Positions 6,549 to 50,450 of a stretch of 51,557 bases of DNA are shown here, piece by piece (within the stretch, counting starts at the first letter, position 1; the number at the start of each line of letters is the position of its first letter). Both the position numbers and the translations under genes were made by a program. The notes beneath the pieces are model-generated. The model saw only the letters and a program-made list of their open reading frames with translations, did not search any database and had not been told where the DNA came from. The DNA is from Gammaproteobacteria bacterium (GTDB lineage Bacteria; Pseudomonadota; Gammaproteobacteria; Magnimaribacterales; D2472), in assembly GCA_008080945.1 (NCBI GenBank), contig VMDH01000027.1, forward strand, positions 1 to 51,557, written 5' to 3'.

Positions 6549-7356
6549 GTTTTTGGCATTTGTTGCATAGAAAGCTTGCTCTTTGCCCAACCACTATTCT
6601 ACTAATTGAGTTTGCACAGTTAGGACAAGGCTGATTATCATTTCCATAAACTTTGAGCTTAATTTTAAAATACCCTTTATTACCTTCTGGACTATAAAAG
6701 TCCTTTAATGTGGTGCCCCCCAAGGCTATGGCTTTCTTTAATACTTGTTTAATGGCTTTCACTAGTTTATCTATCTCAGTATTTTTTAACTTATTGCCTG
6801 ATGTCATCGGATGAACATTTGAGATAAACAGAGCTTCATTAGCATAAATATTCCCAACGCCAACAACCACGTGTTGGTTCATGATTAAATTTTTAATGGC
6901 TGCATTAGATTTAGAGATTTTTTCTTGTAAGTAGCTTGCACTAAAATTAGTTGATAAAGGTTCTGGACCAAGTTGTCTATCAAAATCTCTATAGGCTTCT
7001 TTGCTTAAGATTTTAAAATAACCAAACTTCCGAGTATCGTTAAATACGATGCTCTTGTCTTGGAAATGAAAGACTATATGGTCATGTTTTTCTATCCTAT
7101 TGCTGCTTGCTTCTTGGATGCGTAATGTCCCGGTCATACCTAAATGCAACAAATGAAAGAAATCTGAAAATTCTAGGACAATACATTTTGCTCTCCTAAA
7201 TATCTTTTCAACTACAAGGTTCTCTAATGCATGAATATTTTTAGTATCTAATTTCCAACGTAAGTGGGGGTTGGTAACTGAAATATTTTTTAGGATCTTG
7301 CCTTCAAAACCCTTTAAAGCTCTAACAGAAGTTTCTACTTCTGGAAGCTCAGGCAT
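6541..7356 (-). CDS. mutM: Formamidopyrimidine-DNA glycosylase
   Basis: N-terminal PELPEVE, HLGMTG, GVGNIYANE, and C-terminal CPNC...CNKC zinc finger. Confidence 0.95.
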   Translation of the reverse strand: MPELPEVETSVRALKGFEGKILKNISVTNPHLRWKLDTKNIHALENLVVEKIFRRAKCIVLEFSDFFHLLHLGMTGTLRIQEASSNRIEKHDHIVFHFQDKSIVFNDTRKFGYFKILSKEAYRDFDRQLGPEPLSTNFSASYLQEKISKSNAAIKNLIMNQHVVVGVGNIYANEALFISNVHPMTSGNKLKNTEIDKLVKAIKQVLKKAIALGGTTLKDFYSPEGNKGYFKIKLKVYGNDNQPCPNCANSISRIVVGQRASFLCNKCQKLR

Positions 7357-8687
7357 TATCCTAGAAGATTGTTTATTTCTACAAGATTTTGGGGTTGCAA
7401 GGTTCCTGCAGCTAAGTGAAGTCTGAGGATAGATAACAAATAATCATACTTAGCATTGGCAAGGTTCTTTTCTGCAGAATAAAGGCTTTTTTCTGCTTGC
7501 AAAAGGTCCACAATATTTCTGGTGCCAACCTCGTAACCTACTCTGGTTGCCTCTAAGGCAGTGGTCGCTGAAATGACTGCTTGTTTTTGGGCTTTGAGAT
7601 TAGCCACCAATGTGACCACGTTTGAATACTGGGATCTAGTTTCTTGGATTACAGATCTTTCTGCAAACACGGCATCTTGTTCTGCTTGATTAAAACTTGC
7701 GTAGGCTTGTTTTCTTCTGGAATTAACAGCTCCACCTTGAAATATCGGAACGCTCCATTGCAATGCATAATTTTCTCTTTGTGTGACATCTGGAACTGTT
7801 ATTTGGAAGCTCCCTGTATTTAGCCCATCAAAGGAATATTGATTTGTTTCAGATTCTGATTTACTGGCAACAATATCTATTTTGGGTAAGTGATTGGAAG
7901 CTGCGCCGCGTGCTGCATTTTTTGCTGCTAACTTTCGCATTTGTGCTGCTTGGAGTCTAAAATTATTTTCCAGAGCTTTGCTGACCCATTCATCCTTATC
8001 TGCGGGCACTGGATTTTGGACATTTAACTCATTAACTAAACCATCAATAGAGAAAATCTCTCTACCAACAATGGCATTCAATGCCTCTCTGGCAGTATAG
8101 ATTGCTCCCTCAGCTCTTATTTTTGCTGCAAGGCTTAAATCATATGCCAGTTGAGCTTCTTGGACCTCTGTTACTGCAGATAAGCCAACTTCATATCTTT
8201 GTTTAGTTTGTTCTAGTTGCCTTTGTATGGCTTTTTCTTCTGACAATGCTGCACTTAAGTTATCTATAGAACGTAATACATTAAAGTAGGCCTCAGCTGT
8301 TCTTACAATTAGGGACTGCTGATTAAAGGCAAAATCTGCTTCAGATGCATCGGTTAAAAGTTTAGAGCGCTTATACCCAAACCATGTATCTAGTCGAAAA
8401 AGTGGTTGAGATAGTCTGGCCTGCGAAGAAAAATTATTGTATTCGTTTTGCAAGACATCATCTTCGTAGTATTCGTTCCAATTTGTTTGTCCTGAAAGTT
8501 GGATATTAGGAAGTAATTGAGCCCTGCCTTGAACTGCTATTTCTTTGTCAGCAAGGAATGAGTACTCAGCAGCTTTATACTGAGCATCATTTTCTAATGC
8601 TTCGTTATAGATATCTAGCAGGTTTTCAGCATGCAGACTGCTGACCAGAGAAAATAAGAATAGAAATTTTAACGACTGTATTTTCAA
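7356..8687 (-). CDS. tolC: TolC-family outer-membrane channel
   Basis: Signal peptide then ENLLDIY. GYEVGTRNIVDLL motif. Divergent from thiC as in other gammaproteobacteria. Confidence 0.9.
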   Translation of the reverse strand: MKIQSLKFLFLFSLVSSLHAENLLDIYNEALENDAQYKAAEYSFLADKEIAVQGRAQLLPNIQLSGQTNWNEYYEDDVLQNEYNNFSSQARLSQPLFRLDTWFGYKRSKLLTDASEADFAFNQQSLIVRTAEAYFNVLRSIDNLSAALSEEKAIQRQLEQTKQRYEVGLSAVTEVQEAQLAYDLSLAAKIRAEGAIYTAREALNAIVGREIFSIDGLVNELNVQNPVPADKDEWVSKALENNFRLQAAQMRKLAAKNAARGAASNHLPKIDIVASKSESETNQYSFDGLNTGSFQITVPDVTQRENYALQWSVPIFQGGAVNSRRKQAYASFNQAEQDAVFAERSVIQETRSQYSNVVTLVANLKAQKQAVISATTALEATRVGYEVGTRNIVDLLQAEKSLYSAEKNLANAKYDYLLSILRLHLAAGTLQPQNLVEINNLLG

Positions 8688-8691
8688 ACAA

Positions 8692-8811
8692 TTACACCTT
8701 AGTTAACTGAAAAAATATCACTAATACCATGTTAAACGATAACAGGATTGAACTAAATAAAACCAGTTCTTTATTTTTAGTAGACAATTTTTTGCTGATA
8801 AAGTTTTTCAT
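8692..8811 (-). CDS. Unannotated 39-aa single-pass membrane microprotein (MKNFISKKLSTKNKELVLFSSILLSFNMVLVIFFQLTKV)
   Basis: Hand-translated from ATG at 8811 to TAA at 8692. GGA lies 6 nt upstream of the ATG. Fills the space between the promoter and tolC. Lys-rich N-terminus plus a 19-aa hydrophobic run. Below the ORF-track size cutoff. Confidence 0.65.
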   Translation of the reverse strand: MKNFISKKLSTKNKELVLFSSILLSFNMVLVIFFQLTKV

Positions 8812-8830
8812 ATTTGATCCAAAGATGAGC

Positions 8831-8858
8831 ATCATATCTTAAATGTTTACACTGTCAA
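8831..8858 (-). promoter_or_regulatory. Sigma70 promoter TTGACA-N16-TATGAT pointing to microprotein-tolC
   Basis: Consensus -35 at 8858-8853 and near-consensus -10 at 8836-8831 on the minus strand. Confidence 0.7.
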
Positions 8859-8861
8859 CAT
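8843..8861. promoter_or_regulatory. TetR-type operator ATGTTTACA-C-TGTCAACAT overlapping the -35
   Basis: 19-bp near-perfect palindrome. Its reverse complement differs from 46280-46298 only at the central base. Confidence 0.75.
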
Positions 8862-8933
8862 CTGAATACAAACTTTACCCTTTTTAAATAGATAAATAGC
8901 CAATAGTAAGATCAAGAATGAGCTATAATTTGA

Positions 8934-10609
<1,676 letters not shown>

Positions 10610-10610
<1 letters not shown>

Positions 10611-45666: not shown

Positions 45667-46275
45667 CTAGTCTAAAAAACTGCCTAGGAAGGCATCAAGA
45701 TCTTCATTAATCTTGTCCATAACTTTTATAGCAGTGCTTGATCCAGATTCTCTGGCTTTATCAGGGATAGATTTCCTTTTATTTAGGATCATGACTAGGC
45801 CATGAGCCATTGCCCATTGCTGCATACCTTTCAGTTCAGTTTGCTCTTCATTAAGATTAAAGGCCCTGGCTATGATTTTTTTTAGAGTTTGAAAACAGGT
45901 TTCAGCGGCTTCTTCTAAGCCAGAGAATTCTGAAAAATCTTTGATACTATCGCTAAACATAAGATTATAGGTATTAAGATTATTCAATCCAAATTCTATA
46001 TATGTTCTACCAGATGCTATATGCCGCTCTCTTTCAGAGTTAAATTCACCATCTAGAACTTTTAGAAGATCCTTGGTTAGATTCTTAAAACCTTCTTCGG
46101 CTATACAAGCAAGTAATTCTTGTTTGGTTGCAAAGTGCCGATAGGGAGCAGTTTGGGAAACCTTTGCTTTTTTTGCCAGGCCGCGAAGAGAAAGAGCATC
46201 TGCTCCTTCATTCTCGCAGGTCTCACAAGCACAATCTAGCAGTACTTGTTTGAGGTTTCCGTGGTGATATTTCAT
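45667..46275 (-). CDS. TetR/AcrR-family transcriptional regulator
   Basis: YHHGNL start, LSLRGLA..AKVSQTAPYRHF HTH, and WAMAHG. Confidence 0.92.
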   Translation of the reverse strand: MKYHHGNLKQVLLDCACETCENEGADALSLRGLAKKAKVSQTAPYRHFATKQELLACIAEEGFKNLTKDLLKVLDGEFNSERERHIASGRTYIEFGLNNLNTYNLMFSDSIKDFSEFSGLEEAAETCFQTLKKIIARAFNLNEEQTELKGMQQWAMAHGLVMILNKRKSIPDKARESGSSTAIKVMDKINEDLDAFLGSFLD

Positions 46276-46279
46276 AATA

Positions 46280-46298
46280 ATGTTGACACTGTAAACAT
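46280..46298. promoter_or_regulatory. TetR operator 1 ATGTTGACA-C-TGTAAACAT, overlapping a TTGACA -35 (TAATAT at 46305-46310)
   Basis: 19-bp near-perfect palindrome between tetR and the MFP gene. Confidence 0.8.
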
Positions 46299-46308
46299 TT
46301 AATATAAT

Positions 46309-46327
46309 ATGTTTACACTGAGTACAT
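46309..46327. promoter_or_regulatory. TetR operator 2 (degenerate) ATGTTTACA-C-TGAGTACAT
   Basis: Second copy starting 29 bp after operator 1. Confidence 0.65.
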
Positions 46328-46356: not shown

Positions 46357-47379
46357 ATGAAAAGTTTATTACACACTCAACAATTCCTATCCATTTTTTT
46401 GTTAGCTAGCACCGCTATTTTTACAAATTCATTAAAGGCTTTACCAAGTTCGTTAGAGCTCTTAAATTTAAGCATCCAAGATAGTTATACCGTATCCAGG
46501 AGAATTTCTGGAAGAATGTTGCCTAAAAATCAATCCATGCTGTCTTTTGAAATTCAGGGAAGAATATTGTCTTTTCCTGCAGATATTGGAGATGCTGTAA
46601 AAGCTGGCGATGTTCTTGCATCACTAGATGCCAGCGAAATCCAGGCCAACTTTAATCAAGCTAAGGCCCAGCAAAAATTAACTAGCTTGGCTTTAGATAG
46701 ATTTAAGGATCTCAAGGAGGATGGCTTTGTATCTTCACAAGAATTGGACAGAGCTTTGGCTGAGTATGATATTGCTAGCTCTCAAGTAGAGTTTTTCTCT
46801 GTTAAATTACGTCAGTCTCAACTTATTGCTCCTTTTGATGGATTAGTGCAGCAAAGATTTTATGATCCTGGTTCAATGGTTAACCCAATGCAGCCGGTTC
46901 TTGAGCTGATTGATTCTAAGGGAGTTGAGGGGCATATTTCAGTGCCGCAAAAGTATCTAGCGTTGCTAGAGATTGGTGCAAGCTATGCATTTGATATTTC
47001 CGGTAAAACCATTAATGCAACCTTAGAACGACTTGCGCCTATGACAAATGTTGGTTCTGGGAATAGGCTGGCAATTTTTTCTTTTCCACAATTTATTGCT
47101 CCCGGGGAGGTAGTAAACCTTCTGCTTAAAACTCAAATCAAAACTATTGGAGCATGGGTTCCCCTAAGTGCACTTTCTCAAGGCAATCAAGGGCTATGGA
47201 ATATTTATACCCTTGTTGATAATCAAGATGGCAGTAAATCTGTTGCAAGAGAAATAGTTTCTTTGGAATACACAGACGGCACTTATGCCTTCATTTCAGG
47301 AACTATAAAGAGCGGGGATCAAGTTATCACTGGGGGAGCATCCAAGGTTATTGAGGGACAACGCTTCCTTAATCAATGA
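46357..47379 (+). CDS. RND efflux periplasmic adaptor (MFP)
   Basis: GD.VKAGDVLASLD lipoyl half-motif, alpha-hairpin and LIAPFDG. Confidence 0.9.
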   Translation: MKSLLHTQQFLSIFLLASTAIFTNSLKALPSSLELLNLSIQDSYTVSRRISGRMLPKNQSMLSFEIQGRILSFPADIGDAVKAGDVLASLDASEIQANFNQAKAQQKLTSLALDRFKDLKEDGFVSSQELDRALAEYDIASSQVEFFSVKLRQSQLIAPFDGLVQQRFYDPGSMVNPMQPVLELIDSKGVEGHISVPQKYLALLEIGASYAFDISGKTINATLERLAPMTNVGSGNRLAIFSFPQFIAPGEVVNLLLKTQIKTIGAWVPLSALSQGNQGLWNIYTLVDNQDGSKSVAREIVSLEYTDGTYAFISGTIKSGDQVITGGASKVIEGQRFLNQ

Positions 47380-50300
47380 AATTTTTAGACCTGCTTATTG
47401 ATCGTCCTAGAGTTTTTGCTTTGCTCTTGGCTTTTATATGTTTGGCTGGTTTTCTATCGCTAAATACTCTCCCAAGACAAGAAAATCCTGAGCTAGCCCA
47501 ACGCTGGTCAACAGTTCAATCCGTCTATCGGGGAGCATCACCCATTAGAATTAATACGCAGGTCTTAGATCCACTTGAGGCAAAACTTAGAGAAGTTCAA
47601 GAGATTAAAGAGATCCAGTCCGTTGCATCGGAAGGTTTTGCATCCACTGCAATTGAATTAAAGGATACTGTAGACCCAGAGCTTATTGAGCAAGTATGGT
47701 CGGAAGTACAAGATAAAATTGATCAGGCAAAATTCTTACTTCCTGCCGAAGTGGATCCCCAATTAATCAGATCCAGTGGTCCGCCAACCACATTGCTTTA
47801 TGCAATCAACTGGAATGGAGAGGGAGAAACCCCAATCATTTTATTATCACGAGTTGCAGAAGATCTAAAGAACAGACTGGCATATAGCGGTGCAACGGAT
47901 AAAACTTTTCTATACGGGGCTGCTAATGAAGAGGTGATTATTTCAATCGACAGCCAAAAGTTATCTTTGCTTGACTTAACCTTTACAGAGATAGCCAACA
48001 TTTTAAATTCATTTGATAACAAAAAACCCATCGGGATCAATACCTCTGGCTCATCCCAGATCTTAATAAAATCTCAAGATAATTTGGAATCATTGGACGA
48101 GATAAAGCAAATTCCAATCAAGACCATCTCAGGCTCCGAAATAATTAGACTTGAAGATATCGCATCATCTATTCAGCTCTTGCCTCAAACTCCATCTGAA
48201 GAAATTATCTTACATAATGGTAAGAGATCTGTTTTAGTTGATATTAGGGGTGCCTTTCGTCAGCGCATGGATTCTTATGCATCTCTTATAGAAGATACTG
48301 TTGAAGATTTTCGCTCAACGACCCCTCCAGAGATCAGTATTGTGAAAATCTACAATGAATCTCTCTTTTTAGAGAATAAATTCACAGACCTCTCGGTAAG
48401 CATATTTTTTGCTACTAACATTGTAATTTTGCTGAGTTATTTATTGCTGGGTCTGCGCTCAGCTTTAATTGTAGGGATCACGCTGCCTTTAACAATTTTT
48501 TTAGTTTTATTTGGATGCAAGGTCATTGGTTTGCCATTGCATCAAACATCCATGACTGGAATTATTATTGCGCTTGGTTTGTTGATTGATAACTCAATTA
48601 TTATGGTTGAGGATTATAAATTCAGAAGAAAATCTGGACATCCTCCTAGGGCATCTGCGCATCTGAGTTTGCAGCATCTTTGGATACCATTAGCAGCCGC
48701 TACTGCCACAACCGCATTTGCTTTCTTCCCCATAGTAGCTGGGAAGGGGCCCAGTGCAGAATTTGTCGGAGGCATGGGTATTACAGTTATCTTATCAATT
48801 ACTGCTTCATTCTTTCTTGCTTTATTTGTTGTTCCAGTCTTTCTTAATCTCATTGAAAAGGTATCTTTTTTTCAAGGCAAAGATCTTTTCAGTGAGGGAT
48901 ACTCCAATCCTGATTTAACCAATGCTTACCGAAACTTTCTCCAATGGTCTTTCAGTAAACCAAAAAGAGCAATTCTGATAGCATTCGTATTGCCAGGGCT
49001 TGGGTTTCTTGCATTCCCTTTTTTAAAACAAGATTTCTTTCCTGAGCTTGATAGGCCTATGTTTAAAGTTCTGGTTGAGCTTCCTGAAAATACTTCTGCG
49101 GAGGGTTCTGAGCAACGCCTGAAAGAACTCTCAAAAGATATTAATGAAACTCTTGGACTTGAAGTCCAGGATGAAGTTTGGTTCGTTGGCAGAAAAATGC
49201 CAAGAGTTTTATACAACGTTATTGGTGGTGATTCTCCCTTGGGATCCAATAATGTTGCCGAAGGTTTTTTTATGGTTAAGAGCTACACGGCTATGATGGA
49301 AAGAATTCCAAGTCTTGGAAGAGAGCTTGCTAAAAATAATCCTGACTTAAAAGTTATTACGGATAAGTTCGATTCAGGTCCCCCAGTCTTTGCAAGCATT
49401 GAATATAGGATTCTTGGCGATGATATTGAAATCTTAAGAGAGCTTGGTCAACAGTTTGAGTTGATTCTTTCAGATGCACCAGATGTTTTTTTAACGAAGT
49501 CAGATTTGTCTGCGATCACCACAAATTTTGAGTTTTCGTTTAATAATGAAAATATCAGCTTAAGCCCCATTGATGGATCGCTCATATTAAACGAATTATC
49601 TATCTCAAATGAGGGCCGCTATGTTGGAACCTTAATTCAAGGATCCAAAGAGATTCCAATAAAAATATTGAGTAATCAAAGCTCTAATCCTATTCAAGGC
49701 ATAGAGGATCTATCATTTCCAGGCTTATCCGAAACCCAAAATATTTCCTCTTTTGGCGATTTTAAAGTTACTAGCAGACCTAATTTCATAAACCGATTTC
49801 AAGGTATAAAGCAAAACGGAGTGAGGGCATGGATTTGGCCTGATAAGCTTGCCTCAGATACTGAAAAAATAATTCAAGAAGCTGTTACAAATTTTAGCAA
49901 TGATTTGCCTGAGGGCTATCAATTGGTATTGTCAGGAGAGGCTGATGCTCGTTCAAGATCTCAATCTAATTTATTCTCAACAGCTTTTTTATTTATTATT
50001 TTGATTATTGTATCTTTGGTTGCTGCATTGAATTCATTTAGGCAGGCCGGATTAATTTTAAGTGTAGCTATCTTATGCGTTGGCTTAGCTTTTGTTGGTC
50101 TAACAATCGGGCAAGCTAATTTTGGTTTCATTGGTCTAGTTGGAGCAGTAGGCTTAATTGGTCTTTCTATTAATGATTCAATTGTCGTGCTGTCTCACAT
50201 TAAAGAAGCAAACCAAAATAATAATCTGGACTTGAATGGTTTAGTTGAAGTAGTAATCCGTTCTACTCGACATGTTCTAACCACTACAGTGACAACTCTG

Positions 50301-50450
50301 GGAGGTTTTTTACCTCTTTTAATAACTAGCATCTTCTTTCAGCCGCTTGCATGGGCGATGAGTGGTGGAATTTTTGGAGCAACAATTATTGCCCTTCTTT
50401 ATATTCCTGGAGCTTATGTAGCATCTAAAGGACTCCATAAAACAGTCTAA
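47376..50450 (+). CDS. RND-family efflux permease
   Basis: 1024 aa with the RND two-repeat topology. ALGLLIDNSIIMVE (TM4) and RHVLTTTVTTLGGFLPL (TM11). Confidence 0.92.
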   Translation: MKFLDLLIDRPRVFALLLAFICLAGFLSLNTLPRQENPELAQRWSTVQSVYRGASPIRINTQVLDPLEAKLREVQEIKEIQSVASEGFASTAIELKDTVDPELIEQVWSEVQDKIDQAKFLLPAEVDPQLIRSSGPPTTLLYAINWNGEGETPIILLSRVAEDLKNRLAYSGATDKTFLYGAANEEVIISIDSQKLSLLDLTFTEIANILNSFDNKKPIGINTSGSSQILIKSQDNLESLDEIKQIPIKTISGSEIIRLEDIASSIQLLPQTPSEEIILHNGKRSVLVDIRGAFRQRMDSYASLIEDTVEDFRSTTPPEISIVKIYNESLFLENKFTDLSVSIFFATNIVILLSYLLLGLRSALIVGITLPLTIFLVLFGCKVIGLPLHQTSMTGIIIALGLLIDNSIIMVEDYKFRRKSGHPPRASAHLSLQHLWIPLAAATATTAFAFFPIVAGKGPSAEFVGGMGITVILSITASFFLALFVVPVFLNLIEKVSFFQGKDLFSEGYSNPDLTNAYRNFLQWSFSKPKRAILIAFVLPGLGFLAFPFLKQDFFPELDRPMFKVLVELPENTSAEGSEQRLKELSKDINETLGLEVQDEVWFVGRKMPRVLYNVIGGDSPLGSNNVAEGFFMVKSYTAMMERIPSLGRELAKNNPDLKVITDKFDSGPPVFASIEYRILGDDIEILRELGQQFELILSDAPDVFLTKSDLSAITTNFEFSFNNENISLSPIDGSLILNELSISNEGRYVGTLIQGSKEIPIKILSNQSSNPIQGIEDLSFPGLSETQNISSFGDFKVTSRPNFINRFQGIKQNGVRAWIWPDKLASDTEKIIQEAVTNFSNDLPEGYQLVLSGEADARSRSQSNLFSTAFLFIILIIVSLVAALNSFRQAGLILSVAILCVGLAFVGLTIGQANFGFIGLVGAVGLIGLSINDSIVVLSHIKEANQNNNLDLNGLVEVVIRSTRHVLTTTVTTLGGFLPLLITSIFFQPLAWAMSGGIFGATIIALLYIPGAYVASKGLHKTV

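Follow-up and report, generated by a model that had tools for sequence, protein, structure and literature searches.

The apparent leader of the tolC gene in the window, the whole 51,557-nucleotide (nt) stretch of contig VMDH01000027.1 from a gammaproteobacterium of the order Magnimaribacterales, is, on comparative sequence evidence, a protein-coding gene under purifying selection at the amino acid level (positions 8811 to 8692). Its 39-residue product is best explained as a single-pass inner-membrane microprotein that is made with an efflux pump of the resistance-nodulation-division (RND) type and acts on the complex of membrane fusion protein (MFP) and RND transporter, as an analogue rather than a homologue of AcrZ; we hold this explanation, which draws on sequence, a structure model, and analogy, to be evenly balanced between true and false. 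A preliminary description, made from the letters of the window, had presented the tolC leader as an open frame that begins 19 nt after the −10 box (ATG at 8811), has GGA 6 nt before this ATG, and ends (TAA, 8694–8692) 4 nt before the tolC TTG at 8687, all of which the sequence confirms.

An open frame of 39 codons, taken alone, is within chance in AT-rich DNA, and comparison is needed to decide. The local base composition is 37% G+C, an arithmetic estimate for this composition is that approximately 6% of stretches of 39 codons remain open, and 48 open reading frames (ORFs) of at least 30 amino acids (aa) lie in the 6 kb around the locus. The tolC locus was retrieved in all 41 related genomes (40 of them fetched as relatives), and tolC upstream regions were compared within the genus, comprising the source genome and the congeners G001 and G002 (three species; TolC protein of the two congeners 91–93% identical). 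The frame is maintained at exactly 39 codons, with no insertion or deletion (indel), in all three species. Nucleotide identity across the ORF is 80–82% with no gaps, and the adjacent intergenic DNA of the same species is 59–66% identical with 2–15 gap columns. By the Nei–Gojobori method (NG86), the ratio of non-synonymous to synonymous change (omega, dN/dS) is 0.21, 0.12, and 0.38 for the three species pairs (Fisher p 0.0013, 2e-5, and 0.074, respectively); thus, the frame conservation and the ratio below 1 that had been proposed as a check are both found, with omega between 0.12 and 0.38. The two other forward frames contain 3–8 stops and give no selection signal in five of six comparisons; an antisense frame that has its wobble positions in common with the ORF partly mimics the coding signal, as expected. 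Synonymous sites of tolC are saturated between the three species (proportion of synonymous differences, pS, 0.68–0.76), and the proportion of non-synonymous differences (pN) is 0.10–0.17 in the ORF vs. 0.25–0.41 in the region encoding the TolC signal peptide. A longer, 47-aa version of the frame is possible from an ATG inside the −10 box; this start was rejected because the extension is out of frame in G002, which leaves the ATG at 8811 as the start.

A homologue of the peptide is encoded in the sister genus, where it precedes a different pump gene. Metagenome contigs were scanned with the 22-nt promoter/operator core, a query that is blind to the ORF, yielding 26 loci. In this genus, the tolC promoter accounts for two, both with the ORF intact, and the MFP-RND promoter for one; eight constitute a second group, of the sister-genus type, and 15 are unrelated contexts. 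The promoter type that bears the ORF accounts for 10 of the 26 loci, and the frame is kept in all 10. The sister genus, with a TolC that is 76% identical, is the closest genus by this measure. Its gene order is a divergent TetR gene, a double-operator promoter, a 35-codon frame (MKKLIYKNQTLVAFLISVSSLNIILITMFQLTKIG), 4 nt, and then genes for a 329-aa MFP, which has a signal peptide of its own, and for a 1020-aa RND transporter. The homologue is therefore the first cistron of the MFP-RND operon, with none before tolC; in the genus of the window, no small ORF precedes the MFP gene. This arrangement makes the link to the pump stronger than the preliminary description could have known.

The peptides of the two genera align over 34 positions without internal gaps and with 50% identity (invariant in both: M1, K2, L9, N13, L16, F19, S25, N27, L30, F34, Q35, L36, T37, and K38). 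Nucleotide identity between the genera is 0.53–0.59, and 5–9 of the 16–17 identical residues over the 34 codons are specified by different codons; differences by codon position show a third-position excess (for example, 15/9/24). A profile built from the sister genus only retrieves the window ORF as the best six-frame match genome-wide in three of three genomes (E 2.2e-4, 1.0e-3, and 0.052). Within the sister genus, 14 distinct nucleotide sequences (from seven genomes and eight metagenome contigs) all have 35 codons, with 13 synonymous and nine non-synonymous changes over 22 and 83 sites, respectively (omega approximately 0.18; binomial p 1.1e-4), and with variable states distributed 4/4/14 over the codon positions. 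None of the 17 distinct sequences of both genera has an indel, and flanking non-coding DNA does have indels.

Three of the sister-genus metagenome contigs have a shortened or broken MFP frame (258 aa; 50 + 164 aa; and 250 aa, vs. 329 aa) with the small ORF intact; the broken frames may be assembly errors or real decay. Among the unrelated contexts, 12 metagenome contigs hold the identical 22-nt core in a more G+C-rich, mutually conserved setting with no efflux genes in view. Three contigs have the palindrome pair beside other genes and, downstream of the 22-mer, no further likeness to the window; one carries the label activated sludge.

The promoter of the microprotein gene (Table 1) is the sole minus-strand match in a promoter scan of 8400–9100. 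From its position, transcription would start near 8824, giving a leader of approximately 12 nt. The stretch from the −35 box to the ATG is 86–90% identical among the three species (adjacent intergenic DNA, 59–66%), and the palindromic operator that overlaps the −35 box is retained exactly in G001 and G002. The preliminary description had proposed that this promoter carries the operator of the distant RND cassette, and the palindrome indeed recurs in two copies at the MFP-RND promoter; five matches were found in total vs. 0.08 expected, and none of 100 shuffles reaches five. Genes for a TetR repressor, MFP, RND transporter, and outer-membrane factor, as well as the palindromic operators, are all present, and together represent a TetR-controlled tripartite RND efflux regulon. 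Via this common operator, we infer that the microprotein gene and tolC are co-regulated with MFP-RND.

Table 1. Positions of the microprotein gene and of the associated promoter, operators, and efflux genes in the window.
Feature	Positions	Strand	Details
Microprotein gene	8692..8811	minus	39 codons + TAA; translation MKNFISKKLSTKNKELVLFSSILLSFNMVLVIFFQLTKV*
AAGGTG	8695..8700	minus	final two sense codons (Lys-Val) of microprotein gene; likely tolC Shine–Dalgarno sequence
tolC-type outer-membrane factor	7356..8687	minus	TTG start; 443 aa; Pfam OEP 2.3e-59
Sigma-70-type promoter	8831..8858	minus	TTGACA (8858–8853), 16-nt spacer, TATGAT (8836–8831); 11/12 positions
TetR-type operator palindrome TGTTGACAGTGTAAACA	8844..8860		17 nt; overlaps −35 box
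Two operator copies, MFP-RND promoter	46281..46326		46281–46297 (1 mismatch), 46310–46326 (3 mismatches)
TetR-family repressor	45667..46275	minus	divergent from MFP-RND; Pfam TetR_N 3.4e-09, TetR_C_33 1.5e-07
MFP and RND transporter, presumed partners	46357..50450	plus	MFP 46357–47379, HlyD_3 2.6e-13; RND 47376–50450, ACR_tran 1.1e-113

Across the family, an operator with no more than two mismatches lies near tolC in 18 of 25 loci. The distance from operator to tolC is 170–176 nt in this genus vs. 31–68 nt outside it, and the ORF fills the difference. The tolC operator is degenerate, with 4–5 mismatches, in the sister-genus genomes that bear the ORF before the MFP gene and in another genus; judging from these sites, tolC may have left the regulon in such lineages. 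A third operator copy in the source genome (one mismatch; contig C5:5796–5812) lies just upstream of a gene whose 367-aa product is an AurF-like di-iron protein (Pfam PF11583, 2.1e-13), suggesting that the TetR regulon probably extends past the pump genes. Compared with TetR-repressed RND regulons that have a separate outer-membrane factor, the layout is the same in that the TetR gene is divergent from MFP-RND and that operators overlap both the MFP-RND and the tolC promoters; it differs by the extra microprotein cistron, which occurs in two genera only and in a different unit in each.

The product consists of five lysines and one glutamate, then a hydrophobic stretch of approximately 21 residues, then one lysine. 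In agreement with the preliminary description, which had pointed to five lysines followed by a hydrophobic segment, the best 19-residue Kyte–Doolittle window scores 2.52; 18-residue maxima are 2.3–2.7 in all homologues. An AlphaFold2 model gives a single helix over residues 2–37 (mean predicted local distance difference test score, pLDDT, 84.9). The lysine-rich N-terminal end has a net charge of +4, and the sister-genus peptide has three lysines before the helix and one after it; by the positive-inside rule, this distribution places the N-terminus in the cytoplasm. Hydropathy, charge, and the model are consistent with the single-pass, N-in topology predicted earlier, with the short FQLTK(V) end expected at the periplasmic face. 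Serine and hydrophobic positions swap between the genera, with retention of the hydrophobicity, the lysine-rich start, Ser25, Asn27, and the FQLTK end.

According to published accounts, AcrZ attaches to AcrB in its transmembrane part and changes the resistance to some of the substrates (PMC7267776, PMC4462101), has a periplasmic N-terminus and a cytoplasmic C-terminus (PMC7267776), and is encoded by a lone gene away from acrAB (PMC4462101). AcrZ (YbhT of E. coli; PF10766), a small one-helix inner-membrane protein co-regulated with a tripartite RND pump, and the peptide described here are alike in being small, in having a single helix, predicted for the peptide, and in being under the regulator of the pump, as deduced for the peptide from its operator. 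They differ in orientation, which on the basis of the lysine-rich N-terminus and the positive-inside rule is predicted to be opposite to that of AcrZ, as the preliminary description had it. They also differ in gene position, the peptide gene being the first cistron of a pump operon and acrZ being solitary. The earlier statement that there is no similarity to AcrZ also stands: PF10766 matches neither the peptide of the window nor that of the sister genus at E up to 10, and a search of all six frames of five genomes (G000, G001, G002, G017, and G024) gave no match at E up to 1, with the E. coli control passing the cut-off.

In the mechanism proposed for the peptide as a pump subunit, release of the repressor from the operator would lead to the peptide being made together with the pump proteins, and tolC would be translated closely behind the stop codon of the microprotein gene. 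The peptide would insert into the inner membrane and could pack on the transmembrane part of MFP-RND via its invariant polar residues (Asn13, Ser25, Asn27, Gln35, Thr37, and Lys38), thereby tuning how the pump assembles, how stable it is, or which substrates it prefers, in the way that AcrZ acts on AcrB. The location before tolC would reflect co-regulation only, because the 3–4 periplasmic residues cannot reach TolC. A complex prediction of the peptide with transmembrane pieces of the RND transporter (1–45, 325–560, and 855–1024) scored 0.00; it was based on fragments, with the RND protein unaligned, was uncontrolled, and is outside calibration, so that it is no evidence either way. The idea that the peptide is a severed N-terminal anchor of the MFP was rejected: in all 24 loci, whether or not the ORF is present, the MFP has an N-terminus of its own that resembles a signal peptide and lacks a lipobox, and the peptide profile finds nothing at other MFP N-termini.

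Several observations weigh against a role as a pump subunit, or against amino acid selection as the sole constraint. In the sister genus, 20 of the 22 nucleotide changes fall in the first 60 nt of the frame and two in the last 45, and in the genus of the window the ORF has changed less at synonymous sites than tolC has (pS 0.36–0.51 vs. 0.68–0.76). This clustering and the conservation of synonymous sites imply that part of the constraint acts on the nucleotide sequence. Such constraint at the 3′ end fits the translation-initiation region that would be expected there for the next gene, and it would also suit a cis-acting role. For the G002/G001 pair, the wrong frame +1 gives an omega of 0.19 (p 0.012), and the true frame of the same pair has p 0.074. 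The peptide is missing from 256 of the 266 genomes of the order, including relatives with orthologous TetR, MFP, RND, and TolC, so that the pump can do without it; the N-termini of the MFPs are alike with and without the ORF, and no compensating change in a partner was seen. No Shine–Dalgarno (SD) sequence precedes the ATG in two of the three species or in the sister genus, and the leader is estimated at approximately 12 nt. Furthermore, 39 residues would barely clear the ribosome tunnel before termination, so that membrane insertion would be post-translational.

With respect to initiation, the GGA 6 nt before the ATG, which the preliminary description took as a ribosome-binding site, is present in this genome, but it is absent from both congeners and from the sister genus. 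A 4-mer SD-like motif occurs in the 15 nt upstream of six of the 29 window ORFs of at least 200 aa (first ATG taken as the start). Because SD-like motifs are rare in the genome, the presence or absence of GGA weighs little either way; translation initiation in this organism seems, from these upstream sequences, to be largely SD-independent, and with GGA not conserved, initiation must rely on an A/U-rich short leader. AAGGTG, named earlier as the likely ribosome-binding site of tolC within the last codons of the frame, is invariant in all three species of the genus, in all of which tolC starts with TTG; the gap from the stop codon of the frame to this TTG is 4, 2, and 5 nt in the three species.

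The alternative that has to be weighed most seriously is that the frame is a cis-acting leader ORF, the product of which matters little or acts only inside the ribosome; we regard this as unlikely, though with a real chance of being correct. In one version, termination and reinitiation would deliver ribosomes to the start codon 2–5 nt downstream; in another, the C-terminal FQLTK, which is invariant in both genera, would respond to a drug or metabolite by stalling the ribosome, thereby setting the translation of tolC or, in the sister genus, of MFP-RND. The stop lies 2–5 nt before the next start in both genera (2–5 nt to tolC, 4 nt to the sister-genus MFP), which is a layout seen in attenuators and arrest leaders, and the last codons hold the SD-like sequence of the next gene. 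The weak TTG start of tolC in all three species and the 3′ end beside the downstream start, where conservation is strongest and synonymous change is reduced as well, point the same way, as does the length of the peptide, which approximates that of the ribosome exit tunnel. The alternative RNA structures overlapping the ORF that characterize attenuators and arrest leaders, such as a terminator/antiterminator or a hairpin that masks the start site, were not found by terminator scan, folding, or Rfam: the promoter/terminator scan of the locus gave no terminator-like sites, folding of the leader gave minimum free energy z-scores of −0.83 and +0.69 vs. shuffles, with no significant (hence no significant switchable) structure, and Rfam gave no match at E up to 1. 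tolC has a good SD sequence of its own (AAGGTG), and the preserved lysine-rich end with a hydrophobic helix of approximately 20 residues and invariant Asn and Ser is something that simple coupling does not need. We know of no arrest peptide with this pattern of a lysine-rich end plus a hydrophobic helix. Moreover, orthologous tolC and MFP genes in eight other genera use the same operator-promoter type without a leader ORF. Efflux-linked leader peptides have been published, namely peTrpL with smeAB of Sinorhizobium (PMC7298713) and a leader peptide in the regulation of MexXY of Pseudomonas (PMC12057347); the likeness lies in a short ORF, a regulatory position, and a link to an RND pump. peTrpL reportedly is part of a tryptophan attenuator and acts in trans, and no attenuator structure was found here; neither peptide is known to be a hydrophobic one encoded by the first cistron of the pump operon. 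The MexXY leader peptide, for its part, reportedly acts through an anti-repressor gene. The cis-leader and microprotein readings are compatible with each other and not exclusive.

Less probable still is a genuine membrane microprotein that works away from the pump, in membrane protection or sensing or on another inner-membrane protein, with TetR control as the only thing in common. The coding and membrane evidence for such a role is identical to that for a pump-associated microprotein, the regulon includes at least one non-pump gene (encoding the AurF-like di-iron protein), and the language-model comparison places unrelated small membrane proteins nearest (YkgR and YniD-like, 0.78), which serve as leads only; however, in both genera the gene heads a pump transcription unit, 2–5 nt from a pump gene, rather than beside the AurF-like gene or alone. 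We consider it very improbable that there is no gene at all, that is, that a chance open frame in an AT-rich leader owes its conservation to DNA or RNA signals (an extra operator, the promoter, or an mRNA stability element). Frames of similar size are common at the locus, T-rich DNA translates as hydrophobic sequence, and synonymous sites are somewhat conserved, but a third-position excess and omega of 0.1–0.4 recur in two independent genera, no indel occurs in 17 distinct sequences vs. indels in the flanking non-coding stretches, and the protein is 50% identical at 53–59% nucleotide identity, with 5–9 identical residues encoded by different codons; neither an RNA family match nor a significant fold was obtained. 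The 3′ end of the ORF was also considered as a degenerate extra operator and rejected, the palindrome being, by eye, poor and not common to both genera.

Transcript data for the locus come from 14 metatranscriptome runs in which 73–84% of the sampled words of 7356–9400 occur; these are contigs, which carry no start, end, strand, or level, and four runs were examined. Run X1 has one 2476-nt contig from 8038 to past 9400, spanning the ORF, promoter, and thiC and possibly representing DNA or read-through. Run X2 has a contig over 8038–8737 (8737 being inside the small ORF) that continues into adaptor-like letters, and in X3 a contig covers 7557–8713 and then has a loose end; short, low-depth contigs of a related strain cover 8589–8807 in X1, X2, and X3. 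Run X12 has tolC contigs but none on 8667–8942, and its thiC contig begins behind adaptor-like letters at 8946, which is 3 nt into the thiC frame. A thiC contig that starts inside the thiC frame indicates that contig ends are unreliable as transcript starts. The contigs also break off at differing positions and with loose ends, from which no start can be read. The adaptor-like ends at 8737 and 8946 might mark ends of abundant fragments, which contigs cannot show. It is possible that the main tolC start lies downstream of 8811, and the contig data support no conclusion on the start; an additional constitutive start within the ORF could coexist with a repressed operator promoter.

The distribution of the microprotein gene is narrow. 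In a six-frame search of 139 family and 266 order genomes with the combined profile, strong matches (E 2e-16 or better) were confined to two genera, with the homologue present in all three genomes of this genus and in seven of nine of the sister genus. Weak matches outside the two genera, all with E above 1e-3, were taken as chance; the two that were inspected singly were rejected, one for two internal stops (G263) and the other for being antisense inside a 256-aa gene (G026). By this distribution, the regulon (TetR, MFP-RND, and tolC) is old, with the microprotein cistron added later to one unit or the other. On the opposite strand, thiC (8943–10610) is divergent from 8943. It is the divergent neighbor of tolC in this genus, in two sister-genus genomes, and in one further genus (g3, without the ORF); parE is the neighbor of tolC in 19 other family loci. 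A third sister-genus genome (G010) has neither the microprotein gene nor thiC beside tolC. The thiC neighborhood and the ORF distribution fit a single origin in a common ancestor. The thiC gene is often preceded by a thiamine pyrophosphate (TPP) riboswitch; no TPP riboswitch was found upstream of thiC here (8836–8942), and an Rfam search of 8000–9600 at E up to 1 gave no match.

In the protein databases searched, no protein shares words with the 47-aa form, and the peptide profile, run against 1.84 billion representative proteins, gave no match at E up to 0.001. Genes this short are rarely called, so these negatives are a poor guide to distribution; the microprotein gene appears to be unrecorded by gene callers. 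A scan of genome contigs with the peptide profile gave 285 pattern matches, two of which were confirmed (both congeners); the sister-genus copies were not confirmed by it, which shows that its reach is short. No family was found in Pfam and NCBIfam at E up to 10, the single row being at chance level (TIGR02599, E 0.53). In a protein atlas, the best scores were 0.82 (unnamed clusters) and 0.78 (YkgR and YniD-like small membrane proteins), which are below the meaningful level.

Taking the pump-associated microprotein as the preferred explanation, the peptide could represent the first member of a second RND-pump microprotein family that is unrelated to AcrZ and has an N-in topology, such that it would bind another face or partner; it would have originated recently in genome-streamlined marine gammaproteobacteria and have moved between outer-membrane-factor and MFP-RND units, perhaps by recombination of near-identical operator promoters. 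We put forward this wider proposal tentatively, as somewhat short of an even prospect. That a small membrane protein can be co-regulated with an RND pump is already known from AcrZ; the family described here is unrelated to it in sequence, has a predicted inverted topology, and is encoded within operons, in alternative units of one regulon, in uncultured gammaproteobacteria with small genomes. Among small proteins that bind and tune an RND multidrug pump, AcrZ, which is restricted to enterobacteria, is to our knowledge the single well-studied case. If the proposal is true, small pump-tuning subunits evolved more than once, and they would be findable as selected first cistrons behind pump operators. 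Promoter-anchored comparison of this kind can recover hidden small genes of uncultured bacteria, and sister lineages that have the gene in two operon positions, or not at all, provide a comparative system for distinguishing a trans-acting protein from a cis-acting leader. A second, unrelated microprotein under selection in an RND/TolC regulon would suggest that pump-associated small subunits are a recurrent solution.

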